Assembly (NCBI GenBank): GCA_963662945.1
Contig: OY759974.1
Span: 992,001 to 1,056,000, forward strand
Direction: 5' to 3'
Length of the DNA: 64,000 nt
Origin: Arcobacteraceae bacterium
Lineage (GTDB): Bacteria > Campylobacterota > Campylobacteria > Campylobacterales > Arcobacteraceae
The stretch's first letter is position 1; each line of letters begins with the position of its first letter. The notes below the pieces were generated by a model. It had not been told where the DNA came from. It searched no databases and saw nothing but the letters and a program-made list of their open reading frames with translations. Shown piece by piece: positions 6,860-28,912 of the stretch. Made by a program: the position numbers and the translations under genes.

Positions 6860-7816
6860 TTGAAAAAAAAGATTTTAGTTATATCATATTCTCAAACCGG
6901 ACAGCTTGATAATGTTGTCAAAAATTTCATCAAACCTCTTGAACAAAATGAAGATACAATACAAGTAACTTGTAAACATATAGAACCAATTAAACCTTAT
7001 CCTTTTCCGTGGGATGTAATGACATTTATGGACACATTTCCAGAATCAGTGCATCTTAATGGCTGTGAGATTAAAAAATTTGAAAAAGATGAAACAGAAT
7101 ATGATTTGATTATACTTGCTTATCAAGTATGGTTTCTATCTCCATCAATTCCAATAACAGCTTTTTTAAAATCAAACTATGCAAAACAAAAACTTCAAAA
7201 TAAACCTGTCATCACCCTTATTGGATGTAGAAATATGTGGATTATGGCACAAGAGAAAGTTAAAAAACTTTTAAATGATATTGGAGCAAAACTTATTGAT
7301 AATGTTGTATTAATAGATAGAGGAAACTCGCTTGAAACATTTATCACAACTCCTCGTTGGATGTTAACAGGGAAAACCAATTCTTTATGGGGAATGAGTG
7401 AAGCTGGAATTGATCCATTAGAGATAAATAATGCAAATAGATTTGGGAAGGCACTTCTTGAAGCCTTAAGAAATGACAAAGAAAAAGAGTGTATTCCACT
7501 ACTTCAAGGCTTAAAAGCTGTAGAGGTAAATACAAAACTTATACGAAGTGAAAAAATTGCAACAAAAAGTTTTCACATTTGGGGTAAACTTATACAAAAA
7601 CTTGGTGAACCTGGAGATATTAAAAGAAAACCAGTAGTTATATTATATTTAATCTTTTTACTACTTATTATTCTGACCATTGTACCAATTAATATGATTG
7701 TTCAATCAATTTTAAGAAAAATAAATAAAGAGAAAGTACTCCAAGAAAAAGAATACTATGAATTACCCTCTGGTAATGGGGATGAAAGAATAAAGGAATT
7801 TATGATTAATGAATAA
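6860..7816 (+). CDS. darA: Dialkylresorcinol-condensing/aromatase enzyme DarA
   Basis: KILVISYSQTGQL, YPFPW...FMDTFPESV, LAYQVWFLSPSIP, GCRNMWIMAQEKVK, TFITTPRWMLTG; flavodoxin-like fold with C-terminal TM; precedes darB. Confidence 0.88.
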   Translation: MKKKILVISYSQTGQLDNVVKNFIKPLEQNEDTIQVTCKHIEPIKPYPFPWDVMTFMDTFPESVHLNGCEIKKFEKDETEYDLIILAYQVWFLSPSIPITAFLKSNYAKQKLQNKPVITLIGCRNMWIMAQEKVKKLLNDIGAKLIDNVVLIDRGNSLETFITTPRWMLTGKTNSLWGMSEAGIDPLEINNANRFGKALLEALRNDKEKECIPLLQGLKAVEVNTKLIRSEKIATKSFHIWGKLIQKLGEPGDIKRKPVVILYLIFLLLIILTIVPINMIVQSILRKINKEKVLQEKEYYELPSGNGDERIKEFMINE

Positions 7817-8951
7817 TGTATATATCAATCAAATAGAAAAGTTTATGCCTAATGAACCTGTTAGTAATGAGGAGATAGAAGAATATCTTGGATATATTGG
7901 CGGCAAAAAATCAAAAGCTAAGAATATAGTTTTAAAAAGCAATGGAATACAAACACGTTACTATGTCCTTGAAAAAGGAACAGAACGACCACTTTTTTCA
8001 AATGCTCAACTTACAGCTAATGCAATTAAAAAACTTGAAAATGACAAATTTTCTTTAAATGATATAGAATGTCTTGCCTGTGGAACAACATCACCTGATC
8101 AACTTATGCCAAACCATACACTTATGGTACAAGGCGAGTTAAAAATAAATGAGATAGAAACTATAAGTGCAAGTGGAATTTGTCTTAGTGGAATCAATGC
8201 TTTAAAATATATTTATTATGGTATTAAATGTGGTGATTTATCATGTGCAATTGCAACGGGAAGTGAAACTTCTTCTCCAATTTTAAGTGCTAAAAACTTT
8301 CAAAAAGAATCAGAACATCTAATCGATGAACTCAAAAAAAATACAAGTATTGCTTTTGAGAAAGATTTTTTACGATGGATGCTTTCTGATGGTGCAGGAG
8401 CTATGAAACTTGAAAATAAACCAAATGAAAATAAACTTTCTTTAAAGATAGATTTCATAGATGTACTTTCTTATGCAGGTGAAATGCCTGTATGTATGTA
8501 TAGTGGACTTAATGTGGAAGGTAATAAAGTTACATCATGGAGAGCTTATTCACAAGATGAAGTGATGGCGAAATCACTTCTTTCTGTAAAACAAGATGTA
8601 AAACTACTCAATGAAAATATCATTGAATATACAGTAACAAAACCTATTATCAAAATTGCACAAAAAAGGGATTTAACTGCAGAAAAGTTTGATTATTTTC
8701 TACCACATTACTCTTCAACATATTTTAGAGATAAACTTTATGAAGGACTCAAAAAAGCTAATTTTGAAATACCTTACGAAAAATGGTTTACAAATCTTAC
8801 AAAATTTGGAAATACAGGAAGTGCTTCTATGTATATTATGTTAGAAGAACTTTTTAATAGTAATACTTTACAAAAAGGTCAAAAAATTCTTTGCTACATA
8901 CCTGAGAGTGGAAGATTTTCTACTGCATTCATGGCTTTAGAGGTAGTATGA
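7809..8951 (+). CDS. darB: StlD/DarB-family KSIII ketosynthase
   Basis: FMPNEPVSNEEIEEYLG, catalytic C in SGICLSG, FEKDFLRWMLSDGAGA, H in FLPHYSS, N in GNTGSAS, PESGRFS. Confidence 0.92.
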   Translation: MNNVYINQIEKFMPNEPVSNEEIEEYLGYIGGKKSKAKNIVLKSNGIQTRYYVLEKGTERPLFSNAQLTANAIKKLENDKFSLNDIECLACGTTSPDQLMPNHTLMVQGELKINEIETISASGICLSGINALKYIYYGIKCGDLSCAIATGSETSSPILSAKNFQKESEHLIDELKKNTSIAFEKDFLRWMLSDGAGAMKLENKPNENKLSLKIDFIDVLSYAGEMPVCMYSGLNVEGNKVTSWRAYSQDEVMAKSLLSVKQDVKLLNENIIEYTVTKPIIKIAQKRDLTAEKFDYFLPHYSSTYFRDKLYEGLKKANFEIPYEKWFTNLTKFGNTGSASMYIMLEELFNSNTLQKGQKILCYIPESGRFSTAFMALEVV

Positions 8952-9349
8952 AACAGATCACAATTCCCCAAGAGGAAAATAGTACTTTAAATGGCTATCA
9001 AAAGGTAATGTATGCACCTAATTCAAATGGTGAGTTTCAAACATTTAATTACGGAAGTCATGTAGAAGAGTACGCAACAAAACTTGCAGTGGAAGAATAT
9101 GAAATACTTAAGCAAGAATGTTTAGAAAATATTAAAAATAATATATCTTCACCAATTGAATATTATATGTATCACAATAGAATGGATATACCAACTTTAG
9201 CTTCTGTTGTTGGTTTTTTTCAATTTAGAGTTAAAAGACACTTACAAGCAAAACATTTTAAAAAACTCAATGATAAAATTCTTCAAAAATATAGTGATGT
9301 TTTTGGTATAACACTTGATCAACTAAAAGGTTTTAATAATGGAAAATAA
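8948..9349 (+). CDS. Conserved dar-cluster protein with possible C-terminal XRE-type HTH
   Basis: ATGA-coupled to darB; SPIEYYM...MDIPTLASVVG...RVKRHL...LQKYSDVFGITLDQLK resembles an HTH-like helix pattern. Confidence 0.55.
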   Translation: MKQITIPQEENSTLNGYQKVMYAPNSNGEFQTFNYGSHVEEYATKLAVEEYEILKQECLENIKNNISSPIEYYMYHNRMDIPTLASVVGFFQFRVKRHLQAKHFKKLNDKILQKYSDVFGITLDQLKGFNNGK

Positions 9350-10331
9350 TTTTAAGCACAATCAATTTGCACATTGTGAAAGTGGCGTAATATCAACATT
9401 ATTATCAAACTATGGTCTAAAAATAAGTGAACCTATGGCATTTGGAATTACACATTCTTTATCATTTTTTTACTTTCCTCTAATCAAGCTTAACAATATG
9501 CCATTAATTGCATATAGGGAAATACCAAAAAACATTATCAAAAATATTGATAAAAGACTTGGTGTAAAAATTTATAAAAAACAATATAATGAGCCAATAG
9601 TGGCAAATGATGAACTTACTCGTTTAGTTGTTGATGAAAAAAAACTTGTTGGTCTACAAACATCTGTTTACTACCTTCCATATATGCCAGAAGATATGAG
9701 ATTTCATTTTAATGCACATAACTTACTTGTATATGGGAAAGAAGACGATGAGTATCTTATTTCAGACCCTGTATTTGAAGATGTAGTAAGAGCAAATGAA
9801 AATAAATTAACAATTGCAAGATTTGCAAAAGGGGTTTTTGCACCCAAAGGATTTTTATATTATCCTAAAAGTATTCCTCAAAATATTGATTATGAAACTA
9901 TACTCAAAAAATCAATCAAAAAAAATGCAAAAACGATGACAACACCCTTCCCTTTTGCTGGAGTTAAAGGGATGAGAAAACTAGCAAATGCTGTTGAAAG
10001 AATTCAAAACAATCCAAATGAACGATATGTAAAAAACTATCTTACACATATTGTTCGTATGCAAGAGGAGATAGGCACTGGTGGCGGTGGTTTTAGATTC
10101 TTATACTCTGCATTTTTACAAGAAGCAACACAGTATAATTTAGATAAACAAAAACTACAAACAGCAAGTGAACTTATCACACAATCAGGAGATATACTTA
10201 GAGAATTTGCTCTAAGATGTGTAATGGGTGCAAAACATATTGACAAATTAGATTCAAAAGAGATTGCTACATTTTTAATTGAAGCATCAAAAATAGAAGA
10301 GGAAGCTTTTACAATTTTAAAGTCAATCTAA
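9339..10331 (+). CDS. BtrH N-terminal domain protein (papain/C39-like fold, DUF4872)
   Basis: AHCESG (Cys), FHFNAHNLLVYG (His), ISDPVF (Asp), MQEEIGTGGGGFRFLYSAFL. Confidence 0.82.
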   Translation: MENNFKHNQFAHCESGVISTLLSNYGLKISEPMAFGITHSLSFFYFPLIKLNNMPLIAYREIPKNIIKNIDKRLGVKIYKKQYNEPIVANDELTRLVVDEKKLVGLQTSVYYLPYMPEDMRFHFNAHNLLVYGKEDDEYLISDPVFEDVVRANENKLTIARFAKGVFAPKGFLYYPKSIPQNIDYETILKKSIKKNAKTMTTPFPFAGVKGMRKLANAVERIQNNPNERYVKNYLTHIVRMQEEIGTGGGGFRFLYSAFLQEATQYNLDKQKLQTASELITQSGDILREFALRCVMGAKHIDKLDSKEIATFLIEASKIEEEAFTILKSI

Positions 10332-10394
10332 TTCGATAATAAGTAAGTATGTTATAAAATATCGCAGTAATTAATAGAAAAAAAAAGGTAATAA

Positions 10395-10649
10395 ATGGTA
10401 AGTAATACAGAGTTAAAAGAGGTTTTAATTAAATATCTAAATCTTGAAGATATAGAAGCTAATGAGATAGATGATAACGATCCATTATTTGGAGATGATG
10501 GTTTGGGTTTAGATTCTGTTGATTCTATCGAACTTGTTTTAGCTATTGAAAAAGAGTATGGTGTAAAAATTACCGATTCAACACAATACGATAAAATATT
10601 TGCAACAATCTCATCTCTTTTAAACTATATCAATGACAATAAAAAATAA
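10395..10649 (+). CDS. Acyl carrier protein 1
   Basis: Acidic 84 aa protein with PLFGDDGLGLDSVDSIEL phosphopantetheine motif. Confidence 0.93.
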   Translation: MVSNTELKEVLIKYLNLEDIEANEIDDNDPLFGDDGLGLDSVDSIELVLAIEKEYGVKITDSTQYDKIFATISSLLNYINDNKK

Positions 10650-11745
10650 AGCTTATATAACAAATACAGCTTTAATTTGTTGTTCTGGAGAAAATGAAGA
10701 GCAATTATTTCACAATATTTGTACTGGGAATAGTTTTATAAAAACTGATACAGACTATTTTCAAAATATACCAGCTGCAATTGGGAAAATCTCTTCTGAA
10801 CAAACTTTTTTTAATAATCTTCTTCTTAAATGTGAAGAAATTTTAAATAATAGTAACCTACAAAACTTTGAAGATACGCTTCTTATTATTGGTTCATCTG
10901 TAGGTGGAATAGCTATAACTGAAGAGAGTTATTTAAAAAATGGCAACTATTCACAAATAGACCCAAACTATCATAATATCCATACAATACAAACTATACT
11001 TGAAAAAAAATTTAAATTTTCCGATGGGGTTTCTTTTTCTACAGCTTGTACTTCAAGTGCAAATGCTTTAGGATATGCATATGAAGTTATTACAAAAGGT
11101 TTATATCAAAATGTACTAGTACTTGGTGTTGATCAGTTATCTCAAACTACTGTTGGGGGTTTTTTATCTTTGGGTGTTCTTTCAAGTGAACCTTGTAAAC
11201 CTTTTGATATAAATAGAGATGGAATGAATGTGGCAGAAGCAATCGCTTGTCTTTTAATTCAATCAAAACCAAATAACAACAGTATTGAGATTTGTGGAGT
11301 GGGATATAGTTCTGATGCTTACCATATGACACATCCTCATCCTGATGGATTAGGAGCAAAAAGTGCGATGGAAAAAGCACTATCACAAGCGAATATATCT
11401 GAAAAAAATATTGACTATATTAATGCTCATGGAACAGGTACTGGAGCAAATGACTCTGCTGAAGCAAATGCAATTGCAAATTTATTTACAAATGCCCCTT
11501 ATGTTAGTTCTACAAAATCTATAACGGGTCATACTCTAGGAGCTGCTGGTGCTTTAGAAGCGATTATTTGTAAATTAGTCATAAACAATCAAACTATACC
11601 AACAAGTACAAACTTAACAAACATTGAGAATGAGCAAATTAATCTAACAATGCAAAATATAGAAAAAGAGATTAATTATGTAATAAGTAACTCTTTTGCA
11701 TTTGGTGGTAATAACTGTAGTTTAGTATTTGGGAAAGTACAATGA
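10633..11745 (+). CDS. Beta-ketoacyl-ACP synthase 1 (FabB/F-type, aryl-polyene KS)
   Basis: STACTSSAN, YINAHGTGT, KSITGHTLGAAG (Cys-His-His triad), SNSFAFGGNN. Confidence 0.92.
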   Translation: MTIKNKAYITNTALICCSGENEEQLFHNICTGNSFIKTDTDYFQNIPAAIGKISSEQTFFNNLLLKCEEILNNSNLQNFEDTLLIIGSSVGGIAITEESYLKNGNYSQIDPNYHNIHTIQTILEKKFKFSDGVSFSTACTSSANALGYAYEVITKGLYQNVLVLGVDQLSQTTVGGFLSLGVLSSEPCKPFDINRDGMNVAEAIACLLIQSKPNNNSIEICGVGYSSDAYHMTHPHPDGLGAKSAMEKALSQANISEKNIDYINAHGTGTGANDSAEANAIANLFTNAPYVSSTKSITGHTLGAAGALEAIICKLVINNQTIPTSTNLTNIENEQINLTMQNIEKEINYVISNSFAFGGNNCSLVFGKVQ

Positions 11746-12386
11746 TAAATTTAGAAATTATAGATGCTGCCTTCATATATGATTCAAAAGAAATAGAAAA
11801 CCTTCAAACCAAAGAATTAGTTCCAAAAATGGTAACAAGAAGAAGATTAACAAGAGCAGCTAAAATTGCCATCTATTTAGCGAATGCTGTTAACTTTACA
11901 ACAGGACGAATAGTATATGGAAGTAGTTTTGGTGAGATTCCTGCTACTGCTAGTATATTAAAAAGTATTAAAGATAAAGAGACTATAAGTCCAACAGATT
12001 TTCAAAATTCTGTTTATAATACAGCTGCATCTTATCTTTCAATGCTATATGGAAATCAAAGTGAGATAATGACTCTCTCTAGTGGAGATAATACCTCTAA
12101 AAGTTTACTAAAAATGGGAGCTGTAAAAGCATTAGATGGAGATGAAATTCTACTTATTGCTACTGAGACACTTAATATTCCACATATTGAAGAAGTTAAT
12201 AAGTGTATAGACTACTTAGAATGTGGTGTTGCCTTGAAAATAAAAGTAACTCAACTGTCACCAAATTTTGATACTATAAATAATGATAATGATTTTTTAA
12301 AAGTTCCAAATTCATTAAAAGAGTTATTTAACATTGCAAAACAATTTAAAGAAACCGAGCAAAATATACTTGAGATTACAATATGA
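11742..12386 (+). CDS. Ketosynthase chain-length factor 1 (ApeC-like)
   Basis: TRRRLTRAAKIA, ISPTDFQNSVYNTAASYLS; truncated KS fold without catalytic triad; coupled to KS1. Confidence 0.82.
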   Translation: MINLEIIDAAFIYDSKEIENLQTKELVPKMVTRRRLTRAAKIAIYLANAVNFTTGRIVYGSSFGEIPATASILKSIKDKETISPTDFQNSVYNTAASYLSMLYGNQSEIMTLSSGDNTSKSLLKMGAVKALDGDEILLIATETLNIPHIEEVNKCIDYLECGVALKIKVTQLSPNFDTINNDNDFLKVPNSLKELFNIAKQFKETEQNILEITI

Positions 12387-12742
12387 AATTACCCCATTTA
12401 GAACCTTTAATATTTGCTAAAAAAATTGTAGAAAAGAATGAAAATAATACTATAGTATTATGTGAATTTCAAGAGATACCAACATTTACAACTTTTATCG
12501 AAGCTGCTGCTCAATCAAGTTCATCATTTGTTGACCAAGAGAAACCAAAACTAGGTTTTTTAGCTACAGTAAAAAATATTGAACAACATAAAGAATTTGA
12601 CCAATTACAATATCATATACATTTAAAACTTGAAGCTCAAATTGCTGAATTTAAACAATTTTATTTTGAAGTTTTTAAGCTTAATAACAATACAGAAGCA
12701 TACATCTCTGGTAACTTCAGTGTTATTATCAAAGAAGCATAA
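12383..12742 (+). CDS. Hot-dog dehydratase subunit (ApeP-like)
   Basis: LPHLEP...FIEAAAQS...LGFL motif. Confidence 0.7.
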   Translation: MKLPHLEPLIFAKKIVEKNENNTIVLCEFQEIPTFTTFIEAAAQSSSSFVDQEKPKLGFLATVKNIEQHKEFDQLQYHIHLKLEAQIAEFKQFYFEVFKLNNNTEAYISGNFSVIIKEA

Positions 12743-12755
12743 AGGATAGATACAC

Positions 12756-13070
12756 TTGCTAAAAGATTTATTTACTATAGTACAAAATACAGATACACAA
12801 ATAATTGTGAAACTAAGTGATGAAAATCATCCTATATTTAAAGCACATTTTCCAAACTATCCAATACTTCCAGGTTTTTTACTGATTGAAATTGTAGTCA
12901 ATGTATTAGAGGATACTATAAAAAAAATTCATTCTGCAAAATTTATAGCTCATACCTTACCTAATGATACTATTATTTATAATATCAATAAAGATGCCTT
13001 AAAAACTAAAATCAAAATTGTAAAAGATGATGAACAAAATAGTAAAATTGCAGAGATAATCTATGAGTAA
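12756..13070 (+). CDS. FabA/FabZ-like dehydratase (ApeI-like)
   Basis: HPIFKAHFPNYPILPGFLLIE. Confidence 0.82.
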   Translation: MLKDLFTIVQNTDTQIIVKLSDENHPIFKAHFPNYPILPGFLLIEIVVNVLEDTIKKIHSAKFIAHTLPNDTIIYNINKDALKTKIKIVKDDEQNSKIAEIIYE

Positions 13071-13758
13071 ACAAGACACAATAGTAGTAGTACCTACATA
13101 TAATAACCCTAAAACTATAAAACAAGTGGTTGATGATATTTTAAATAATCATTATGAAGTAATAGTAGTTGATGATGGTTCTCTAAATAGTGTAGAAAAT
13201 ATTTTATCTGATGAAAAATATAAAAATGTTCATATTGAAACACATTCTGTCAACATAGGGAAAGGTCAAGCAATACTTACTGGTGCAAAAAAAGCGAAAC
13301 AATTAGGATATAAAAATATTGTTAGCATGGATGGTGATGGTCAGCACTTAGCAAGTGAAGTTATAAAACTTATAGAAACAAATACAATTGAAAATCAAAT
13401 CGTCATAGGCTCAAGAAATTTTAATATAGATAACATTCCAAAAAAATCTAAAATCGGAAGAGCCTTTCATAACTTTTGGATTAAATTAAATAGTGGATTT
13501 AATATTGAAGATTCATTAAGTGGTTTTAGACTTTATCCTGTTTCAATTATAGATTTAGGAACTAAAAAAGTGGGTTTTAGTTTTGAAATAGAAGTTTTAG
13601 TCAAACATCTTTGGAAATATCAACATATGACACAAGCTACAATTGAATGTTTTTATCCAAAACCAGAAGATAGGGTAAGTCATTTTGATAACTATAAAGA
13701 TACTCTTAGATTTATCCTCTTACATTTACAATTATTTTTTTTAAAATTTTTAAAATAA
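13063..13758 (+). CDS. Glycosyltransferase family 2 (DPM1-like)
   Basis: VVVPTYN, VVDDGS, NIGKGQA, MDGDGQH, DSLSGFRLYP, RVSHF. Confidence 0.9.
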   Translation: MSKQDTIVVVPTYNNPKTIKQVVDDILNNHYEVIVVDDGSLNSVENILSDEKYKNVHIETHSVNIGKGQAILTGAKKAKQLGYKNIVSMDGDGQHLASEVIKLIETNTIENQIVIGSRNFNIDNIPKKSKIGRAFHNFWIKLNSGFNIEDSLSGFRLYPVSIIDLGTKKVGFSFEIEVLVKHLWKYQHMTQATIECFYPKPEDRVSHFDNYKDTLRFILLHLQLFFLKFLK

Positions 13759-13837: not shown

Positions 13838-14797
13838 ATGAAAAATATTTTTAAGTATATTGGTACTGCATTATTTGTATTGATATTAACAGGATGTGGT
13901 GGTACAGCTATTTACAATATTGACAATAGTAATACAATAGCAGGTAAAACTTCAATGAAACAAATTGAAACTGCTATTAAAAAAGGTGCTTTAAGAAAAA
14001 ATTGGTCTGTTAAAAAGGAAAAAGAGGGGTTACTTACAGCTACAGTTAACGTAAGAGGAAAACATATTGCTGTTGTTTCAATCTCATACGATACAAAAGG
14101 TTATAAAATTGATTATAAAGACAGTCAAGGTTTAGATTATGATGCATCTTCTAATACTATCCACAAAAATTATAATAAATGGATATCTAACTTAGAAAGA
14201 AATATCAACTATGAATTAGCACAAATAGGTTTACAGCAAACTAGTTCAGCTATTCAAACAACAAATCCTACATCACAACCCGTTGCAACAAAACCTGCAA
14301 CTGTTACAACTACAAATGTAAAAAAGGCTGGTGATTTAAGTCTTGGGGGTAAAACAGTATATATTAAAAGTGTTATCCCTTATGCCCCTACAGCACCTGT
14401 TGCTCCAAACATCAAAGCAGAATGTATTATAGATCAACAACTCAGTGAGTTTATAGTTAAATCAGCACAAGCAAGTGGTCTAAATGTGGTGGTAAAAAAT
14501 GATATTGGGAAAAATGATATAGAACTAAAAGTTGAAATTGCTGATGCAGTAAGTCAAGGTGGTGCATTTAGAGGACATAATAAATATGTTGCAATCAATG
14601 GTGCTTTAGTTCAAGGAGATAAACAATTTCAATCTTTCAAAGCAGCTAGAATTTCTGGTGGAGGTTTCTGGGGTGCATACAAAAGTTCTTGTGCTGTGTT
14701 AGGAAGAACAGTAGAGGCATTAGGTAAAGATGTTGGTGTATGGTTATCAAGTCCTATTGATGGTGCTAGACTTGGCGATACTTACCTCATAAGATAA
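13838..14797 (+). CDS. Two-domain lipoprotein of unknown function
   Basis: Lipobox LTGC; N-domain ending IHKNYNKWISNL, T/P/Q-rich linker, C-domain with GGGFWGAYKSSCAVLGR. Confidence 0.75.
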   Translation: MKNIFKYIGTALFVLILTGCGGTAIYNIDNSNTIAGKTSMKQIETAIKKGALRKNWSVKKEKEGLLTATVNVRGKHIAVVSISYDTKGYKIDYKDSQGLDYDASSNTIHKNYNKWISNLERNINYELAQIGLQQTSSAIQTTNPTSQPVATKPATVTTTNVKKAGDLSLGGKTVYIKSVIPYAPTAPVAPNIKAECIIDQQLSEFIVKSAQASGLNVVVKNDIGKNDIELKVEIADAVSQGGAFRGHNKYVAINGALVQGDKQFQSFKAARISGGGFWGAYKSSCAVLGRTVEALGKDVGVWLSSPIDGARLGDTYLIR

Positions 14798-14801
14798 TAA
14801 A

Positions 14802-15413
14802 ATGAAAAATTTAATAACTATCTTCTTCTTAAGTATATTTACTTTTATATTCAGTGGTTGTAACAATGATAAGTTACAATTAGATAATTCCCAAATGAAA
14901 ACGACATATTACACACAAGTTAATATGTGGTATCATAAAAAAGTTACACAAACAGACCCTACAAATGATGGATTAACACACTCAAAAGGGGAATATGCTG
15001 AATATACAATTTATTCAACTAATTATAACAATGGTACATTACTTCCTTTAAATTCTGAAGTAACAATAACATATCTTGATAGAAATATTATTTTCTTTGA
15101 ATATAACAATAAAGTTTTTGCACTCAAAAGAACAAATCATAGTAAACATATTAGTTTAGAGGGGATATTTAAAAGAACTTTTGCAACTCAAAAAATCTCT
15201 TTAGAAAAATATGATGCATTGACACAACACAGTATTCTTAACGCAGAGGTAAAACAAGATATGTCAAAAGATGCAATTATCTTATCAAGAGGATACCCAC
15301 CTGAGCACAGAACTCGAACACTAGATGCCAACACATGGTACTATTGGTCAAGTACACATAATAAACAAGCTTTATCTTTTAAAGATAATAAACTTGAATC
15401 AATTAGAGATTAA
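14802..15413 (+). CDS. Lipoprotein of unknown function (C-terminal BamE/SmpA-like motif)
   Basis: Lipobox FSGC; DMSKDAIILSRGYPPEHRT...WYYW. Confidence 0.7.
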   Translation: MKNLITIFFLSIFTFIFSGCNNDKLQLDNSQMKTTYYTQVNMWYHKKVTQTDPTNDGLTHSKGEYAEYTIYSTNYNNGTLLPLNSEVTITYLDRNIIFFEYNNKVFALKRTNHSKHISLEGIFKRTFATQKISLEKYDALTQHSILNAEVKQDMSKDAIILSRGYPPEHRTRTLDANTWYYWSSTHNKQALSFKDNKLESIRD

Positions 15414-16649: not shown

Positions 16650-16751
16650 TATTTCTCCTAAATTAAAGCATAATCTTATCATATAATTAGTTAACTTTAG
16701 TTATAATTTAGATTATTAAAATTAATATATTATATATAGGAAAAGTTCTTT

Positions 16752-20911: not shown

Positions 20912-21394
20912 TTGCAAAAGAAATATGTATTTATATTATTATTTTTATCTAATATATTATTTTCAAAAGAGGTACACTTCAATGAAACTAAATATATCTA
21001 TGCACTTGATAATAAGTTTAGTAAAGTTGGTACTTTAAATATAGAAGATGCTAAAGTTACCTTGCACTACAAAAATAGTGATAAAAAAGTTATATACACA
21101 GATGAAAATATACAAATTATAACTTCAAATACAACTGAAATTTATACCCATGAAGAGAGTCTAGAATACAATATATTTTTCCAACTTGTTCTTGGTATAT
21201 ATACAAACAACACCTCACAATTAGGTGAAAATTTCACACTAAAACAAGATAAAAACCTTGTTACTTTGATACCAAATGAATATCTCTCTTCAGTTATTGA
21301 GACAATCGAATATGAAAAAAACAATAACACACTCAAATTTCTTAAAATAAATTTTACAAATCAAGATAGGATTACTATTGAAGAGACTAAGTAA
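20912..21394 (+). CDS. LolA-like periplasmic carrier (ApeL-like)
   Basis: Signal peptide, FNETKYIYAL...GTL, C-terminal QDRITI; directly before the MMPL gene. Confidence 0.68.
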   Translation: MQKKYVFILLFLSNILFSKEVHFNETKYIYALDNKFSKVGTLNIEDAKVTLHYKNSDKKVIYTDENIQIITSNTTEIYTHEESLEYNIFFQLVLGIYTNNTSQLGENFTLKQDKNLVTLIPNEYLSSVIETIEYEKNNNTLKFLKINFTNQDRITIEETK

Positions 21395-23453
21395 CTACAT
21401 CAATTTTATTATCCTATCCATACTACTTGCTATATTTTTTATAACAAATATTCCCAGTCATATCTCTACACAAATCACAAGTATCCTTCCAAATGGAGAA
21501 AATAAAGCACTGTTGAAAGAGTTTGAAAAACTCAATACAACCAAACAACTTTTTGTAGCCTACAAGGGTGACAATACTATAACACTTGATAAACTTAAAA
21601 ATATAGAACGTATGCTTTTAAAACACAAAAATATTCATCCTTTTACGCAAACAAGTGCCAATAAAATCTTTGAAAAAAAGTATTACTATCTGACTCATAA
21701 ATTCAATGAAACTAAATATAACTCACTAGATATAGTAACTGAACTTTCTTTATTACATAAACAAATTCTCACTTCACCTTTTAGTGTTTCTCTTGATACA
21801 ACTGATCCACTTAATCTTTTTGAAAAAAACTCAACCCTTCGAACCTCTTATGTAAAAATAAAAAACTATGGATATTTAACAATTTTACAACTTGATAAAA
21901 GTATTAATAATTTTACTGCTTATAAAGAGATATATGATTTTGCTCAAAATTTGAAAAAGACAGATACAAATATAGAGGTATTTTCTACTTTGTTTTATTT
22001 TGTGGAAAATCAAGAAAAAATCAAAAATGATGTCAATATCATCATCACTTTTGCATTGAGTATATTATTTATTTTATATATTGTGATTTTAAGAGATATA
22101 AAACTTCTTATTCAAACTATTACTACTCTTGGCTCATCTATTATTTTTGCTATACTTATTAGTATTTTACTATTTGATGAAATATCAATATTTACTATGA
22201 TTTTTGGTATCTCTATCTCAACTATTGCTATTGATTATATGTTCCATAATTATATGCATGGATATTATGAACAAAATAAAGTTACACTCAATAAAGATGT
22301 TTTTTTTGGGATGAGTACAACTGTTGGGGCTCTTTTAATACTCTCCTTTGTTGATTTCAGTTTTATTCAACAACTCACAGTTTTTTCAATATGTGCATTA
22401 CTCTTTTCATATATTCTATTTACTTTTTTATTTCCTTACTTAAATATACAACCACAAAAACCATCAAAACTCATACAAAATAAATTTACAATCAAACCAT
22501 TGTATATAACGATAATTTCAATAATTTTAATCACCCTTGCAATCTCAAATCTAAAAATTGATTTTAATATTAAAAATCTTGATATTGATAATAAAGAGTT
22601 ACAATCTTTAGATAACTTTTTTAATAAACATATAAACAAAGATAAAAAAACAGCTGTATTACTCTATGCATCTTCTATAGAAGAATTAGTAAACTATTCA
22701 CATAACTTACAAATAAAATATCCCAAGATTCAAAATCCACTTGCAAATATTCCAACATCTAATAGTTTTGAAATCTTTGATACAAAAAGATTGAAAGAAT
22801 TGAACAAAAAACTCAATGAAAATGCCAATAAAATTGGCTTTCGAAAAAACTTTTTTCAAAATAGTTATATAGTTCCACAAAATACTCCACAATACACACT
22901 TGAAGCACTTGCAGAATTTCCTATAAGTCAATATAAAAACCTTTTTATAAGTTATGCAATAGTAGCTAACAATGACTATAAAAATATTATTCAAGAACCT
23001 TATATCAAAGCTTTAAGTTTTAAAGAATTATTTCAAAAAGATTTAACAAAGTCTCTAAAAACTTTACAGTATTTATCATTTGTTGCACTACTATTTATAT
23101 TAATTATGCTCTATATTGCTGTAAGAAATAACTTCATGAAAGCTTTAAATTATATTTTATTTCCAATTGCCATAACATTGTTAGTCTCCTTTTTTATAGA
23201 ATTAAATATTTTACATATTTTTATGATGATCATTGTAATCTCAATAAGTATTGACTATGGAATTTATATGAGTAATACAAACCTAAGTAGTAATACGCAA
23301 AAAGCGATATTTTATTCTTTACTTTCTACTTTTGCTGGATTCGGTGTTTTAATTTTTTCTAAGGTAAATGCCCTATTTTCAATTGGTCTTATAGCAACTC
23401 TTGGTATAGTGTCACTTATAATTTTATTATTAACACATAAGGTTCCTCGATGA
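21378..23453 (+). CDS. MMPL/RND-type exporter (ApeM-like)
   Basis: Two TM blocks with IAIDYMFH and ISIDYGIY motifs, STFAGFGVL. Confidence 0.85.
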   Translation: MKRLSNYINFIILSILLAIFFITNIPSHISTQITSILPNGENKALLKEFEKLNTTKQLFVAYKGDNTITLDKLKNIERMLLKHKNIHPFTQTSANKIFEKKYYYLTHKFNETKYNSLDIVTELSLLHKQILTSPFSVSLDTTDPLNLFEKNSTLRTSYVKIKNYGYLTILQLDKSINNFTAYKEIYDFAQNLKKTDTNIEVFSTLFYFVENQEKIKNDVNIIITFALSILFILYIVILRDIKLLIQTITTLGSSIIFAILISILLFDEISIFTMIFGISISTIAIDYMFHNYMHGYYEQNKVTLNKDVFFGMSTTVGALLILSFVDFSFIQQLTVFSICALLFSYILFTFLFPYLNIQPQKPSKLIQNKFTIKPLYITIISIILITLAISNLKIDFNIKNLDIDNKELQSLDNFFNKHINKDKKTAVLLYASSIEELVNYSHNLQIKYPKIQNPLANIPTSNSFEIFDTKRLKELNKKLNENANKIGFRKNFFQNSYIVPQNTPQYTLEALAEFPISQYKNLFISYAIVANNDYKNIIQEPYIKALSFKELFQKDLTKSLKTLQYLSFVALLFILIMLYIAVRNNFMKALNYILFPIAITLLVSFFIELNILHIFMMIIVISISIDYGIYMSNTNLSSNTQKAIFYSLLSTFAGFGVLIFSKVNALFSIGLIATLGIVSLIILLLTHKVPR

Positions 23454-24634
23454 CACTCAAAGTTTACAATGATAATGGTTCAATAACAGAACATATTATC
23501 TGCAAAGATACACTATCAAAAACAACTTTAGAAAATGAAATTACTCATATTGGGTTAAGTACAAAAGAGGAAAATATTTTAAATATTTTTAAAACTTATT
23601 TTAATAATTCAAAAGCGATACTTTTTGATAAAAACAATAAAGCAATCATCGAAAAAATAAAACAAGTTGATTTTAAAGATTTTGATCAATTTGACTTTTC
23701 ATTTATCTATTTTACTTCAGGGACTACAGGTTCCCCTGTTGGTGCTTTCAAAACAAAAGAAAATTTTTTAAGTGAGATTAAACAACTTACAAAACTTTTT
23801 GAAAAATATACAATTAAAAGAGTTATTGTAACTGTTCCTTTTATCCATTTTTACGGTTCACTTTTAGGGGCAATTTATCCTTTGATAAATGATATTGATA
23901 TTATCATCAAAGAACATTTTTTACCTCATGATTTATTGGAGTTAGTAGATGAATACTCAATGGTAGTTACCACACCATTGTATATCAAATCATTAAATAA
24001 ACTTGAGACAAAAAAAGATTTAAGTAAATCAATTTTTATAAGTTCTACTGCACCTCTTTTCCCTGATGTAGCACAAGAGTTTCATACAAATTTTTCCACT
24101 GATGTAATTCAAATTTTTGGTTCAACCGAAACAGGTGGTATCGCTTACAAATACAATGATGATGAAAAGTGGACCCCAATGGATAGTGTTGAAATATCTC
24201 AAAATGAGGAAGGGGAACTTAAAGTAAAATCCCCTTTTATCTCCAATGTTCTTTATGAAGATGAATTTAAAATCACAAACCATACGATTCAAACATTTGA
24301 TTATGTGGAGATTGAAAATAATCAATTCAAACTAGTAGGAAGAAGTTCTCAAATAATAAAACTAGCTGGAAAAAGATATTCTACGGTACAAATAGAAAAT
24401 ATTCTTGAAGCGCAACCAAATATAGAAAAAGCGGTTGTATTTGTAAGTACCCACAAAGATAATTTACGAGGAGAAGAACTTAATATCACCCTTCAAACAA
24501 AAGAAAATATTCTTGTAAAAGATATAAAAACACTTCTTAAAAAAGAGTTGTCTAATATGCGATTTAATATTAATCTCAAATTAGTTGATGAGATAAAAAC
24601 AACGCTCGTTGGAAAAAAGATGTTGATACAATAG
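23450..24634 (+). CDS. AMP-dependent acyl-ACP/CoA ligase (ApeH-like)
   Basis: FTSGTTGSP, TVPFIHFYG, FGSTETGG, GRSSQIIKLAGKR, C-terminal GK. Confidence 0.85.
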   Translation: MTLKVYNDNGSITEHIICKDTLSKTTLENEITHIGLSTKEENILNIFKTYFNNSKAILFDKNNKAIIEKIKQVDFKDFDQFDFSFIYFTSGTTGSPVGAFKTKENFLSEIKQLTKLFEKYTIKRVIVTVPFIHFYGSLLGAIYPLINDIDIIIKEHFLPHDLLELVDEYSMVVTTPLYIKSLNKLETKKDLSKSIFISSTAPLFPDVAQEFHTNFSTDVIQIFGSTETGGIAYKYNDDEKWTPMDSVEISQNEEGELKVKSPFISNVLYEDEFKITNHTIQTFDYVEIENNQFKLVGRSSQIIKLAGKRYSTVQIENILEAQPNIEKAVVFVSTHKDNLRGEELNITLQTKENILVKDIKTLLKKELSNMRFNINLKLVDEIKTTLVGKKMLIQ

Positions 24635-24636
24635 AT

Positions 24637-25497
24637 ATGGCAATAGAGATAAAAAACTTAACTAAATCCTATAAAAACAACAAGGTACTTGATGCCCTTT
24701 CATTAAATATCAAAGAGGGTTCTCTTTTTGGACTTTTAGGACCAAATGGGGCAGGAAAAACCACTTTAGTATCCATTATGAATTATCTTCAATCTTATGA
24801 TAGTGGAACCATAAATATTTTTGGATACGATTATGAAAAAGAGAAAAAACAAATCAAACAAATAAGTTCTTATGTACCACAAACATATGCCTTTTATCCA
24901 AATCTAACTGCATATGAAAATCTTGAATTTTTTGGAGCGTTGTATGGATTGCAAAATACCCAACTAAAAAAAAGAATTAATGAGTGTATCGAGATAACCT
25001 CTTTAGAAAAATTTTTAGATAAACGAGCACACACATATTCAGGTGGAGTAAAAAGAAGATTAAATATTGCAATTGGACTACTTAATAGTCCAAAAATCCT
25101 TTACCTAGATGAACCAACTGTTGGGATTGACCCACAATCAAGGAAATATATTCTTGATGTTATAAAGCAAATTAATAAAGAGGATAAAACAACTATTATT
25201 TATACTTCACATTATATGGAGGAGATAGAATATCTTTGTGATGATATTGCAATTCTTGATAATCAAAAAATTATTTTACACGAAACCAAAGAATTACTTT
25301 TAGATAAAAGCTCTTTACTTACAATCAAAACGGCAGAAAAAGAGATACAAGTTGATGTAAAAAATGGGTATGATAATTTACTTGATACACTCAATCTTCT
25401 TAAAAAGCAAAATATATCTATAGAAAATATTGCTTTTAATAATAAAAATTTAGAAGAGCTATTTTTAAATCTAACAAAAGGGAATTTAAGAGACTAA
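24637..25497 (+). CDS. ABC-2 exporter ATP-binding protein
   Basis: GPNGAGKT, YSGGVKRRL, LDEPTVGID, SHYMEE. Confidence 0.95.
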   Translation: MAIEIKNLTKSYKNNKVLDALSLNIKEGSLFGLLGPNGAGKTTLVSIMNYLQSYDSGTINIFGYDYEKEKKQIKQISSYVPQTYAFYPNLTAYENLEFFGALYGLQNTQLKKRINECIEITSLEKFLDKRAHTYSGGVKRRLNIAIGLLNSPKILYLDEPTVGIDPQSRKYILDVIKQINKEDKTTIIYTSHYMEEIEYLCDDIAILDNQKIILHETKELLLDKSSLLTIKTAEKEIQVDVKNGYDNLLDTLNLLKKQNISIENIAFNNKNLEELFLNLTKGNLRD

Positions 25498-26660
25498 TGT
25501 TTAAATATATTTTAAAAAAAGAATTTTTATTGCTTAGTCGAGATATTCATGCACTTTTAGTATTGTTTATTATGCCTACACTTTTTATTATCATTATGTC
25601 ATTAGCACTACAAAATACCTATTCAAATAGTGTTGATACAAAATTTAAAGTAGCAATCAATACAATAAGCAATAAAGACACAGCCTTTATAACACAAGAG
25701 ATAAATAAAAATAACTATTTTCAAGCACAAATCGTAAATAATGAAAAAATAAAAGAACTTATATATACACAAAATTTTGATTTAATTGTCAATATAGTTC
25801 AAGAGTACAAAACTGATATTAATACAAATAAAAAGGATTTTCACATAGATATTTTTATCAATCCTAATCTTTCTTTACAAAATCAATTATTATTTAAAAA
25901 TCTATTAACAGAAATTATTTCAAAACAAATTATGAAAGAGTATTTTATAAAAAATAAAATAGATGCTAAAACTTTATCTACTTTAAATAAAAAGATGACA
26001 ATTATTCCAACATATAAAGAAGAAAAATTTACTATAAAACCAACTTCTGTACAATACAGTGTACCATCTTGGCTTGTTTTTTCAATGTTTTTTATCCTCA
26101 TTCCAATTTCAAATGCTTTTATAAATGAGAGAAATTTTGGAACCATACAGAGATTAAAAAGTATGAATATTCCTTTTATTTTAATAATTTTAGGTAAAAT
26201 GGTACCATACTTTATAATAAACCAGATTCAAGTGTTATTTATGATACTAGTTGGAATTTATGTTGTACCTTTATTAAATGGAGATACACTTCAAATAAAT
26301 GGTAATTATGGTTTAATTTTTACAATGAGTGGTGCAATTTCATTTGCAGCTATCTCTTTTGCAATATTTATAGCAAATATTAGTAGTACTTCAGAAGAAG
26401 CAACTACAATTGGCGGTGTCTCAAATATAATTTTAGCGGCACTTGGTGGTATTATGGTACCAAAATTTGTGATGCCAGAATTTATGCAAAATATTACAAT
26501 TTTTTCACCTATGAACTGGGGACTTGAAGGGTTATTGGAAATTTTTGTAATAGGTGGTAATTTTAATGATATTAAGGCTTACATCCTTTATCTAATGATA
26601 TTTGGATGTTGCTTTTTATTTTTATCGTATCTATTTTTAAAGAAAAAGGAAAATTTATAA
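25497..26660 (+). CDS. ABC-2 exporter permease
   Basis: KKEFLLLSRD, PTSVQYSVPSWLVFSMFF, ERNFGT, LGGIMVP, SPMNW. Confidence 0.9.
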   Translation: MFKYILKKEFLLLSRDIHALLVLFIMPTLFIIIMSLALQNTYSNSVDTKFKVAINTISNKDTAFITQEINKNNYFQAQIVNNEKIKELIYTQNFDLIVNIVQEYKTDINTNKKDFHIDIFINPNLSLQNQLLFKNLLTEIISKQIMKEYFIKNKIDAKTLSTLNKKMTIIPTYKEEKFTIKPTSVQYSVPSWLVFSMFFILIPISNAFINERNFGTIQRLKSMNIPFILIILGKMVPYFIINQIQVLFMILVGIYVVPLLNGDTLQINGNYGLIFTMSGAISFAAISFAIFIANISSTSEEATTIGGVSNIILAALGGIMVPKFVMPEFMQNITIFSPMNWGLEGLLEIFVIGGNFNDIKAYILYLMIFGCCFLFLSYLFLKKKENL

Positions 26661-26926
26661 TGTCAAGTTTTGACACAGAAGAACTAAAAGAAGAGCTTAA
26701 ACAACTTATTATTGATGAGTGTGAAAAAGATTATGAAGCTTCAGATATAACAAACGATGAGATACTTTTTGGATCTGATTCTAAACTTCAACTTGACTCT
26801 TTAGACGCATTACAAATTTCACTTGCTTTAAACAAAAAATATAATCTTAATACGACAGATAGTAAAGAACTTCGTAAAATAATGGTTTCTATCAACTCTT
26901 TAGCAGAACATATTCAATCAATATAA
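26660..26926 (+). CDS. Acyl carrier protein 2 (DarC-like)
   Basis: LFGSDSKLQLDSLDALQISLAL; ATG at 26660 overlaps the permease stop and follows an AAGGA RBS (ORF track starts at 26606). Confidence 0.9.
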   Translation: MSSFDTEELKEELKQLIIDECEKDYEASDITNDEILFGSDSKLQLDSLDALQISLALNKKYNLNTTDSKELRKIMVSINSLAEHIQSI

Positions 26927-28074
26927 TGAAAAAAGTTTATATAACTGGTTCCTCATTAATTTGTGCGCTAGGTAATGATAAATTTCAAAGCATACAAACT
27001 GCAACACAAATAGAAAATAAAAACTACAAAAATTTTTTCCAAGACAATCATGATGGTTTTAATTTTTTTAAAATAAAGCAAACTTTTTCAAGTGAAAAAG
27101 AGAAATTTTATACAATATTACAAGATGCTGTATCTCAAGCTATAAAAGATGCAAATCTATCAATAGAGGAACAAAAAGAGCTACATATATTTATAGGCTC
27201 AACTTCTATGTCAATATCTATTAATGAAGAGCAAAGTCAACTTTATTATGATAATCAATCTAAAAAAATGCTTGCAGAAATTGGTTATGGAAACATAGGT
27301 ACATTTGTTGAAAAAATTGTAAATTCAAAATATAAAGCAACTATACTGCAAACTGCTTGTACTTCAACAGCAAACTCTATAGCCTATGCAACTGAATTTA
27401 TACAAGCAAATAAAATAAAAAAAGCTTTAATAGTAGGTTTAGAACTTTTTAACAAATCAACATATAAAGGTTTTGAATCCTTAATGCTTTTAAGTAAAAA
27501 TGGTATCTACAAACCTTTTGATAAAGAAAGTGATGGTTTAATTTTAGGGGAAGCCTGTTCAGCGATTATTTTAGATACGAATAAAGTTGAAGATTCTAAT
27601 TTTCAAGTTTTATCATCAAATACCTCTTTTGATAATTATTCTATAACTGGTTCAAATCCCACAGGGGAAACTACTTGTGCATCTATGAAGCAAGCTTTAG
27701 AAAAAGCAAATCTTCGTATCAAAGATTTAACGTGTATTAAAGCCCATGCAACAGGGAGTGAAAATTCAAATCTTTCTGAAGCAAAAGCACTTGATACACT
27801 TTTTAAAATATACAATGAAAAAACTGATGTAGTAATTTTAAAACCATTTTTAGGACATTCACTTGGAGCTTGTGGTACAGCTGAAACTGTTTTGCTTTGT
27901 GAATTTATAAATAAGGGATTTATCCCAAAAACACTTAACTATAAAAATGGTTATGAAGATATATCTTTTGAACCTTTATTAGAAAATAAACCTGTTACTA
28001 ATGCTACAATTTTATTGCAGTTCATAGGTTTTGGCGGAAGTAATGTAACTTTAATATTAAGTAATAAAGGTTAA
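26926..28074 (+). CDS. Beta-ketoacyl-ACP synthase 2
   Basis: QTACTSTAN, IKAHATGS, KPFLGHSLGACG, GFGGSN. Confidence 0.9.
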   Translation: MKKVYITGSSLICALGNDKFQSIQTATQIENKNYKNFFQDNHDGFNFFKIKQTFSSEKEKFYTILQDAVSQAIKDANLSIEEQKELHIFIGSTSMSISINEEQSQLYYDNQSKKMLAEIGYGNIGTFVEKIVNSKYKATILQTACTSTANSIAYATEFIQANKIKKALIVGLELFNKSTYKGFESLMLLSKNGIYKPFDKESDGLILGEACSAIILDTNKVEDSNFQVLSSNTSFDNYSITGSNPTGETTCASMKQALEKANLRIKDLTCIKAHATGSENSNLSEAKALDTLFKIYNEKTDVVILKPFLGHSLGACGTAETVLLCEFINKGFIPKTLNYKNGYEDISFEPLLENKPVTNATILLQFIGFGGSNVTLILSNKG

Positions 28075-28078
28075 ATTT

Positions 28079-28912
28079 ATGTATATTAGCGCAACTTTTA
28101 ATGAAACTTTTCAAAATCATTCAACTAAAGAATATAAACAACTTCTCAAACAACTTACTTCAAAACAATTTAGAAGAGTATCAAAGTTCAATATTATGGC
28201 TATTTATGGTGCTCTTAAATGTCTTGAAAATAAAACTTATACTACAGATATCAATATTTATACAGCAAGTGAATATGGTTGTATTGAAGATATGAATACA
28301 GTACTTATGCAAGTAAGTAAAAAAGATGAAATAGTAATGCCTTTTGATTTTTTAAATATCAATGGAAACAATGTAGGTTTTTTAATCTCAGAAGCACTTA
28401 ATACTCTAGGAAATAACTTTTATATAACTGCGGAAGATGTTTCTTTTGAACAAGCATTTCACTTATCCTATTTTGATCTTTCAATCAATAAAATAAAAGA
28501 AGCCTTAGTTGGTGCTGTTGATGAATCACTTGATTCTGTTACAAATGTAAATAGTATGATTAAAAATCCTGAAGGTTACAAAATTTGTGATGGAACAGCT
28601 TGGTTTTTACTTTCTAAAAATAAAAATAATGCTATTGCTAAAATAGAGCATCTAGAAACATTTAGCAATCTTGAAGAATTAAATAGCTTTTTACAAAATT
28701 TACAATACGATTATCTCAGTTTAAATCTTTCTGCAAAAAAAAATATAACTCATCTAAACATAGTTCAAAAAAAAATTATATCTCAAAATGAAATATTTTT
28801 TGGAACATATAGTGCTATGTATATAAGCCATCTTTTAAACTATAAAGGGAAACTTCTCCATATAAGTTTAGATGAAAATTATAGAGCTTATCTTTTCTAC
28901 TTTAATAAATAA
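28079..28912 (+). CDS. Ketosynthase chain-length factor 2
   Basis: FRRVSKFNIMAIYGA, MPFDFLNINGN, ALVGAVDE; no catalytic triad; follows KS2. Confidence 0.72.
   Translation: MYISATFNETFQNHSTKEYKQLLKQLTSKQFRRVSKFNIMAIYGALKCLENKTYTTDINIYTASEYGCIEDMNTVLMQVSKKDEIVMPFDFLNINGNNVGFLISEALNTLGNNFYITAEDVSFEQAFHLSYFDLSINKIKEALVGAVDESLDSVTNVNSMIKNPEGYKICDGTAWFLLSKNKNNAIAKIEHLETFSNLEELNSFLQNLQYDYLSLNLSAKKNITHLNIVQKKIISQNEIFFGTYSAMYISHLLNYKGKLLHISLDENYRAYLFYFNK

Follow-up and report, generated by a model that had tools for sequence, protein, structure and literature searches.

The 64,000-nucleotide window analyzed here, from an Arcobacteraceae genome, carries between purL and cdsA (6860-28912) a locus that is most likely one biosynthetic cluster made of two modules: an aryl-polyene (APE) module and a dar (dialkylresorcinol) module. 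On balance we lean towards a flexirubin/arcuflavin-type ester of a dialkylresorcinol with an aryl polyene as its product, because the distribution of the dar module is nested within that of the APE module and because the dar module includes a dedicated acyltransferase, DarH. An earlier sequence-only reading had proposed a hybrid of a DarAB-type dialkylresorcinol cluster and a type-II aryl-polyene cluster, and the present analysis supports this proposal. Although that reading counted 24 genes, the open reading frame (ORF) listing contains 26, all uninterrupted and 84-691 aa long, of which 24 lie on the + strand and two on the − strand (15435-16682 and 20387-20806); coordinates below refer to the + strand unless marked otherwise. 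The frequent coupling described earlier for this interval is also evident, insofar as 12 same-strand junctions overlap by 1-17 nt in the listed coordinates, a count that takes the second acyl carrier protein (ACP2) from an internal ATG at 26660, overlapping the permease stop codon. Genes were identified using curated Pfam and NCBIfam models, PDB sequence matches, AlphaFold2 (AF2) folds searched with Foldseek, and ESM neighbors. All gene classes named in the sequence-only reading were recovered in this way, two of them (a second hot-dog dehydratase and a LolA-like protein) by predicted fold; a permissive Pfam scan of ten unnamed ORFs (E up to 5) returned noise only.

Gene content of the two modules

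The ketosynthase (KS) and chain-length factor (CLF) of the APE module resemble those of characterized aryl-polyene systems. A KS falling outside the aryl-polyene clades had been named as grounds for abandoning the assignment; KS1 (10633-11745), an ApeO-like elongating ketosynthase with Cys138/His266/His299 motifs, proved closer to ApeO than to FabF. Specifically, its closest PDB chains are Acinetobacter baumannii ApeO (7f28_B, 189.8 bits) and Xenorhabdus doucetiae ApeO (6qsp_A, 178.2 bits), compared to 159.5 bits for the best FabF and 129.5 bits for 7f27_A. In the available sections of PMC8358021, 7F28 and 6QSP are the ApeO-ApeC complexes of these two species, and 7F27 is ApeR. CLF1 (11742-12386; PF13723 (Ketoacyl-synt_2), 72.3 bits) lacks the KS catalytic motifs and is ApeC-like: its significant PDB matches are ApeC chains only (7f28_A, E 1e-6; 6qsp_B, E 7.4e-6), with a third match, 9s5h_C, at E 0.017. 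Dehydration is assigned to two hot-dog proteins. The FabZ-like subunit (12756-13070, 104 aa; PF07977, 26.6 bits) retains an HFPNYPILPG motif, and matches FabZ chains in the PDB at E 5e-5 to 1e-3 and 6qsr_A at E 0.029. The proposed partner subunit (12383-12742, 119 aa) lacks the FabZ His motif and found no match in Pfam, NCBIfam or PDB sequence searches; its assignment comes from the predicted fold (AF2 predicted local distance difference test (pLDDT) 80.8), for which Foldseek matches were led by FabZ and hot-dog thioesterases (FabZ TMq 0.73-0.79). Profile comparison of the two hot-dog families with hhalign was not significant (probability 0.3%).

The remaining synthetic functions are those of a type-II system. 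ACP1 (10395-10649; PF00550; NF006617, 74.2 bits, cut-off 70) carries a DSV serine motif, a FabG-type ketoreductase (KR; 19153-19857) in the ApeQ/FlxB role matches PF13561 (178 bits) together with TIGR01830 (245.9 bits) and FlxB (245.5 bits), both below cut-off, and an AMP-dependent ligase (23450-24634; PF00501, 71.5 bits; TIGR02372, 73.2 bits, below cut-off) would activate the aryl starter in the FlxY/ApeH/ArcT role. The module also encodes a family 2 glycosyltransferase (GT2; 13063-13758; PF00535, 71.3 bits) in an ApeJ/ArcE-type role and an LpxL-family acyltransferase (16752-17618; PF03279, 48.2 bits) with a putative lipid-anchoring role like that of ApeD/ArcD, as well as a small polytopic membrane protein (19860-20384) with ~5-6 hydrophobic segments that is 43-55% identical in all seven relatives compared in detail (see below). 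A 160-aa periplasmic carrier in the ApeL role (20912-21394; AF2 pLDDT 88.3) is LolA-like by fold, its top Foldseek matches all being LolA (E down to 8.5e-10, TMq 0.63-0.75). The MMPL exporter of the sequence-only reading corresponds to a 691-aa ORF (21378-23453), proposed here as a resistance-nodulation-division (RND)/MMPL-like exporter in the ApeM role. This part of the reading stands in a qualified form: Pfam returned no match, while MMPL annotations occur in 13-25% of the members of its ESM neighbors, and the 1+5/1+5 transmembrane (TM) topology (TM1, a ~190-aa loop, five TMs, TM7, a ~175-aa loop and five further TMs), typical of such pumps, is a lead and not proof. From the APE core set of Grammbitter et al. 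(Fig. 1), which comprises KS, ACP, CLF, dehydratase, KR and ApeM, the ACP, KR and FabZ-like subunit are thus recognized by family, the second hot-dog protein by fold, and the transporter by topology and ESM neighbors only.

The starter unit is assigned to an aromatic amino-acid ammonia-lyase dependent on 4-methylideneimidazole-5-one (MIO), either a tyrosine (TAL) or a phenylalanine (PAL) ammonia-lyase (17622-19142; PF00221, 474.6 bits; below the FlxA, BagA and HutH cut-offs). The enzyme has the Ala-Ser-Gly triad (GASGDL) and, at the position of the Glu of histidine ammonia-lyase (HAL), a Gln (NQDKVSMG) as in TAL and PAL. Its selectivity switch (motif 1) is Phe-His, compared to Phe-Leu in aligned cyanobacterial PALs and Ser-His in a HAL. 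Triad, Gln and switch are identical in 11 of 11 lyase sequences, the window's own included. In the available text of PMC3992019, Chitinophaga FlxA shows a 1010-fold preference for tyrosine despite switch residues of the HAL type, and specificity is there considered not to be predictable from sequence; the substrate here may be either Tyr or Phe. No XanB2-type chorismatase was found among the 26 ORFs with Pfam and NCBIfam, the remaining genome lying outside that search. With a lyase present and no chorismatase among these ORFs, the priming logic appears flexirubin-like, not xanthomonadin- or arcuflavin-like. The lyase is also more strongly conserved than its neighbors, at 80-97% identity in 57 of 59 orthologues from other genomes and 60-62% in the other two. 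In one genome of another genus (G089), for example, the lyase is 95% identical, versus 51% for the adjacent acyltransferase and 57% for KS1, and purL of a same-genus relative (G015) is only 83% identical. Such conservation suggests either unusually strong constraint on that one gene or gene-specific exchange.

The nine genes of the dar module are split over both cluster ends, forming its first four and last five ORFs. DarB (7809-8951), a KAS-III-type dialkylresorcinol condensing ketosynthase, scores 601.3 bits with NF005293 (StlD/DarB; cut-off 450). The preceding DarA-like ORF (6860-7816), a proposed aromatase with a flavodoxin-like N-terminus and one C-terminal TM (residues 259-277), has no match in Pfam, NCBIfam or PDB sequence searches. 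However, it has 6462 homologues, many of which NCBI names 'dialkylrecorsinol condensing enzyme'; the named ones are 63-87% identical, and occur in Malaciobacter halophilus, M. marinus, M. mytili, Arcobacter aquimarinus, A. nitrofigilis and Aliarcobacter cryaerophilus. Moreover, darA adjoins darB in every relative that has it. These two genes are followed by a DarG-family protein (8948-9349; NF053536, 139.7 bits, cut-off 70) at the Azoarcus darD position, and by DarH (9339-10331; PF14399 and PF16169), a BtrH-related acyltransferase and the proposed ester-forming enzyme, which reaches the equivalog model NF053550 (462.9 bits, cut-off 300). DarH matches none of 14 control genomes. An AHCESGV motif occurs in 15 of the 18 DarH-orthologous ORFs that include the N-terminus, and is not in the first 60 residues of two long alphaproteobacterial DarH ORFs or of C-terminal fragments.

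At the other end lie an ABC transporter ATPase (24637-25497; TIGR01188, 258.8 bits) and an ABC-2 permease (25497-26660; PF12698, 95.3 bits) at the Azoarcus darF and darI positions, ACP2 (26606-26926; NF006617, 49.3 bits, below cut-off; DSL serine motif) at the darC position, KS2 (26926-28074; PF00109 and PF02801) at the darJ position, and a 277-aa ORF (28079-28912) at the darK position. The ACP-like part of ACP2 starts at residue 19, and the ATG at 26660 is its likely start. KS2 has Cys145/His274/His311, invariant in seven aligned orthologues, and its PDB matches are not specifically ApeO-like, nor ApeR-like (7f27_A, 68.3 bits). Pfam, NCBIfam and PDB sequence searches gave nothing for the 277-aa ORF, and a motif check found no KS catalytic motifs in it. 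Three results nevertheless point to a CLF-like partner of KS2: hhalign relates it to the CLF1 family (65% probability, E 6.1e-5), its alphaproteobacterial orthologues have weak matches to the KS N-terminal families PF13723 and PF00109, and a complex model places it on the KS2 dimer face with an ipSAE of 0.95 versus a best value of 0.00 in three controls. Three runs of this model agree in at least 95% of contacts (partner pLDDT 91). Of 80 solved complexes, 58 attain the ipSAE mark, as do 2 of 110 mismatched pairs. Since structures of KS-CLF complexes already exist, passing it shows likeness to these complexes, not proof of binding.

Distribution of the modules in Arcobacteraceae

The two modules were followed across 184 species-representative Arcobacteraceae genomes from 22 genera, host genome (G000) included, using DarH over its cut-off as the marker for dar and CLF1 as the marker for APE. 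DarH occurs in 41 genomes (10 genera) and CLF1 in 61 (12 genera); the lyase is found in 59 genomes of the same set at ≥60% identity. CLF1 accompanies DarH in 40 of the 41 DarH-positive genomes, the exception being G106, and 21 of the 61 CLF1-positive genomes are without DarH. Beyond the family, in an even draw of 401 genomes from the phylum, DarH exceeds its cut-off in 16, eight of which lie outside Arcobacteraceae in five other families. The cluster is a common, patchy trait of the family, in which the dar genes look like an addition to the polyene module.

Gene-by-gene comparison with seven other Arcobacteraceae genomes separates the modules further. All nine dar genes are present in the four DarH-positive genomes (G089, G128, G185 and G047) and absent from the three APE-only genomes (G015, G147 and G129), which contain weak paralogous matches only. 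All seven carry ACP1, KS1, CLF1, the hot-dog pair, GT2, the acyltransferase, the lyase, KR, the small membrane protein, the LolA-like carrier, the pump and the AMP-ligase. KS2 and its CLF-like partner, ACP2 and the ABC transporter are missing along with the other dar genes in the APE-only genomes, and are therefore assigned to resorcinol synthesis and export, not to the polyene. This refines the two KS/CLF pairs and two ACPs of the sequence-only reading: the second CLF is borne out by profile comparison, orthologue Pfam matches and the complex model, although the second set belongs to the dar module. A role for KS2 and the 277-aa protein as a second polyene KS pair was considered and rejected, as both vanish together with darABGH.

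The dar genes adjoin the APE module in three of the four DarH-positive genomes, and in the fourth only darABGH lie elsewhere. In this genome, G047, darABGH are located at ~1.258 Mb, and the polyene module with the other five dar genes at ~0.65-0.67 Mb, ~590 kb apart; the halves of the dar module can thus be unlinked. The polyene genes of other genera form two divergent operons, whereas in the host genus they are collinear, with the dar genes split across the two ends. The APE module of same-genus G015 lies directly beside purL. In another member of the genus (G006; L015, L005 and L006), in-frame stops divide DarH into ORFs of 200 and 131 aa, and KS1 is shortened as well, reflecting either decay of the dar module or assembly errors.

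Proposed pathway, known systems and alternative products

We propose the following route. The MIO lyase would convert Tyr or Phe to (4-hydroxy)cinnamate, which the AMP-ligase would load as the aryl starter, and ACP1, KS1/CLF1, KR and the two-subunit hot-dog dehydratase would extend it to an omega-aryl polyenoyl-ACP. In parallel, KS2, its CLF-like partner and ACP2 may supply fatty-acyl precursors, two of which DarB would condense to a cyclohexanedione for aromatization by DarA to the 2,5-dialkylresorcinol. DarH would then esterify a hydroxyl of the resorcinol with the polyenoyl chain carried by ACP1; the product may be halogenated in this genome by a halogenase-like enzyme (see below). Placement of the pigment, or of an extra aryl-polyene lipid, in the outer membrane could involve GT2 and the LpxL-type acyltransferase, together with the LolA-like carrier and the RND-like and ABC exporters.

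Two characterized systems combine both gene sets. Flexirubin clusters (the Flavobacterium johnsoniae Fjoh_1075-1110 region; flxA-flxY and darAB of Chitinophaga pinensis) share the lyase starter beside an AMP-ligase, type-II KS/KR/dehydratase polyene synthesis, DarA/DarB, GT2, acyltransferase, LolA-like protein and exporter, as well as the DarH and DarG-family models matched here. Within the available text of PMC3992019, the dar and polyene genes of F. johnsoniae form one cluster. However, flexirubin clusters belong to another phylum, Bacteroidota, and their specific equivalogs are unreached here; the present lyase has Phe-His at motif 1, several KS are reported for C. pinensis versus one KS/CLF pair here, and Pfam and NCBIfam scans of the 26 ORFs found no methyltransferase, thioesterase or polysaccharide deacetylase. 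The dar cluster of Azoarcus sp. BH72 (azo0283-0293) comprises darA, B, D (hypothetical), E (BtrH-like), F (ABC ATPase), I (permease), C (ACP), J (KS) and K (hypothetical), with two toxin-antitoxin-like genes inserted (PMC3949708, Table 1); these are the same nine functional genes as the first four and last five ORFs of the window's cluster. Azoarcus, whose arcuflavin system (arc loci and dar cluster) yields an aryl-polyene-dialkylresorcinol ester, also has a halogenase-like gene, GT2, acyltransferase, LolA, exporter and AMP-ligase (PMC3949708), and GT2, LolA, acyltransferase and exporter form a set conserved in xanthomonadin, arcuflavin and flexirubin clusters (PMC3949708). It differs in its primer (3-hydroxybenzoate from the XanB2 chorismatase, versus an ammonia-lyase here), in having a methyltransferase, and in arrangement (three unlinked loci, versus one 22-kb cluster here).

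Each module on its own also has counterparts. The APE clusters of Escherichia coli CFT073, X. doucetiae and A. baumannii (apeA-R) share the ApeO/ApeC-like KS/CLF, paired hot-dog proteins (ApeI/P), KR (ApeQ), ACP, AMP-dependent loader (ApeH), LolA-like protein (ApeL), RND-like pump (ApeM) and glycosyl-/acyltransferases. Here, in contrast, no ApeR, ApeB, ApeK or DUF3261 ApeN was detected among the 26 ORFs with Pfam and NCBIfam, the starter would be lyase-derived and not 4-hydroxybenzoate, and the nine-gene dar module is extra. The DarABC clusters of Pseudomonas and Photorhabdus, which make free resorcinols, share the DarA/DarB core and an ACP; DarG, DarH, KS2 with its CLF-like partner, the ABC transporter and the adjacent APE module are additional here.

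Several observations weigh against the ester. The equivalog-level models for flexirubin go unreached: FlxA scores 354.2 bits on the lyase (cut-off 700), the FlxB score of the KR lies under its cut-off of 340, the flexirubin-specific DarG model gives 114.5 bits (cut-off 170), and the DarB 'exception' model 496.5 bits (cut-off 550). The scans described above show neither a methyltransferase nor a thioesterase in the cluster. Arcobacter colonies are usually described as unpigmented. An ApeR-type second, FabB-like KS is likewise missing from the 26 ORFs in these scans, the only KS besides KS1 being the dar-associated KS2; according to the available sections of PMC8358021, the full-length polyene was obtained in vitro from ApeO-ApeC alone. 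The ester-forming function proposed for DarH derives entirely from its family name. In addition, the APE module occurs without dar in a third of its carriers, so the resorcinol is not needed, and the presence of GT2 and an acyltransferase would suit an APE glycolipid as end product. By analogy with Xenorhabdus, in which the APE ends as an N-acetylgalactosamine (GalNAc)-phosphoglycerolipid and a glycosyl-/acyltransferase is needed (Grammbitter et al.), these two enzymes may serve, additionally or alternatively, to couple the polyene to a glycolipid, as has been proposed for E. coli too. Finally, in the exceptional genome G106 (96% complete, 30 contigs), DarH is present, CLF1 finds no match and the only lyase is HAL-like, at 30% identity; its dar module may stand alone, or its polyene module may be divergent or missing from the assembly.

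Some of these points suit an alternative that we consider unlikely: two products with no ester link, namely an outer-membrane glycolipid of the aryl-polyene-lipid (APEL) type and a free 2,5-dialkylresorcinol that the ABC transporter would release to act as a signal, an antibiotic or an antioxidant. Separate products are favored by the self-sufficiency of the polyene module in the 21 APE-only carriers and by the dar module having its own ABC exporter, and the Xenorhabdus glycolipid and the ~590-kb separation of darABGH from the APE module in G047 point the same way. Against this, the presence of an APE module in all but one of the DarH carriers fits dependence of dar on APE, DarH is a dedicated acyltransferase inside the dar module, and the two parts are esterified in both characterized systems with both gene sets, flexirubin and arcuflavin. 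It is rather doubtful, although conceivable, that the polyketide part departs from the classical 4-hydroxyphenyl polyene, for example as a cinnamate-primed phenyl or halogenated-phenyl polyene. The Phe of lyase motif 1, as in cyanobacterial PALs and conserved in every lyase sequence aligned, would suit such a head, as would a cluster with a halogenase-like enzyme and no methyltransferase; the Chitinophaga FlxA precedent (HAL-like at motif 1, yet tyrosine-preferring) argues otherwise, and the change would alter a substituent, not the kind of product. A cluster that is silent or decaying in this strain, with no product under normal conditions, seems improbable. The X. doucetiae ape cluster is silent in the laboratory and DarH is split in same-genus G006, whereas here all 26 ORFs are intact with overlapping junctions, the catalytic motifs of KS1, KS2, both ACPs, the lyase and the halogenase-like enzyme are kept, and the lyase is highly conserved across genomes.

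Accessory genes, genomic setting and implications

Four further ORFs lie within the cluster. The flavin-dependent halogenase-like enzyme (15435-16682, − strand; PF04820, 81.5 bits, cut-off 21) has GGGPSG (GxGxxG) and WLWIIP (WxWxIP) motifs. Its best PDB match is the uncharacterized flavoprotein 3nix_A (329 bits), from Cytophaga hutchinsonii, followed by the halogenases ChlB4, PltA, CmlS and CndH (126-143 bits); solved halogenases as a whole score 116-143 bits. Xanthomonadins are typically brominated, with non-brominated variants also on record. The gene is present in two of the seven other genomes and is thus regarded as accessory; judging from its family and motifs, it may halogenate the pigment in this genome, and chlorinated flexirubins are reported in the available text of PMC3992019. 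A lipoprotein with an LTGC lipobox (13838-14797) is conserved in other genera only over a ~130-aa domain. The lipoprotein-like ORF that follows (14802-15413; FSGC) has no tblastn match in the 14 loci or seven genomes compared, and a Sbal_3080-family lipoprotein (20387-20806, − strand; NF040519, 119.1 bits, cut-off 80) has no match in the same relatives. As the related clusters examined contain no counterpart of either, both look like recent insertions. At the position of 14802-15413, two loci (L007 and L015) have a different ORF of ~260 aa, related to the 13838-14797 lipoprotein.

The cluster is flanked by purL (3488-5701, − strand) and cdsA (28968-29726). Between purL and darA, a DUF915 alpha/beta-hydrolase lipoprotein with a lipobox-like FTGC (5789-6760, − strand) occupies the same place in three same-genus records (67-79% identity). 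None of the seven other genomes compared has it, same-genus, APE-only G015 among them; it might be an esterase tied to the dar half. Downstream of dxr, four ORFs without an NCBIfam match (E up to 1e-5), in 30786-32038 and, on the − strand, 33724-34455, surround tsaD (32039-33043) and the leucyl/phenylalanyl-tRNA-protein transferase gene (33053-33721). Base composition gives no clear sign of recent transfer of the cluster (GC 0.24-0.31, versus 0.28-0.34 in the flanks), and counts of promoter-like (121, versus 118.8 expected) and terminator-like (4, versus 4.5 expected) sites are uninformative in such AT-rich DNA. A search of sequencing-run records for expression data returned six entries from two studies, none registered as RNA. 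The host genome is a single contig of 2,497,315 bases. Its purL is 93-98% identical to the nearest public Arcobacteraceae records, in agreement with the host family that had been suggested from sequence, and the cluster proteins of these records are 73-97% identical and in the same order.

The cluster kind is known, and the lineage is new to it. As the sequence-only reading had surmised, no chemically characterized example from Campylobacterota was found in the literature searched, and searches for aryl polyenes, dialkylresorcinols and flexirubin in Arcobacter or Campylobacterota found no paper in a coverage that excluded subscription journals and supplementary files; the co-mentions examined are reference-list or methods mentions only. 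The available part of a comparative genomics study of Arcobacteraceae with antiSMASH gives thiopeptide and nonribosomal peptide synthetase-type I polyketide synthase clusters only (PMC10336517). DarA genes of cultured Arcobacter and Malaciobacter are already named as such by NCBI, and Schoner et al. (2014) predicted that such hybrids are widespread, having found dar genes in 16 of 39 genomes, nine of them adjoining polyene genes (PMC3949708); the 39 genomes, tabulated in its Table S7, may already include an Arcobacter. A broader proposal can be put forward tentatively: that Campylobacterota (Arcobacteraceae and at least five other families with DarH) make flexirubin-type pigments, that a portable nine-gene dar add-on turns aryl-polyene-lipid producers into resorcinol-ester producers, and that the halogenase-like enzyme and the Phe-His lyase give a halogenated or non-hydroxylated aryl head unlike that of known flexirubins.

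If the ester is confirmed, Campylobacterota would gain their first chemically defined member of the flexirubin pigment class. Flexirubin-type esters are used as a chemotaxonomic marker of Bacteroidota, a use that Schoner et al. argued to be unsafe, and Arcobacteraceae pigments would extend this doubt to another phylum. Among the biosynthetic gene cluster families of Gram-negative bacteria, that of the aryl polyenes has been called the most widespread; in E. coli, its pigments give protection from reactive oxygen species and favor the formation of biofilms. The cluster could therefore bear on how some aerotolerant relatives of Campylobacter cope with oxygen, although it does not explain a family-wide trait because it occurs in only about a third of the species. 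Two points are of moderate interest, the unsettled aryl head and the natural series of gain and loss (no cluster, APE only, both modules), the latter of which would allow the contribution of a resorcinol ester to be tested within the family.

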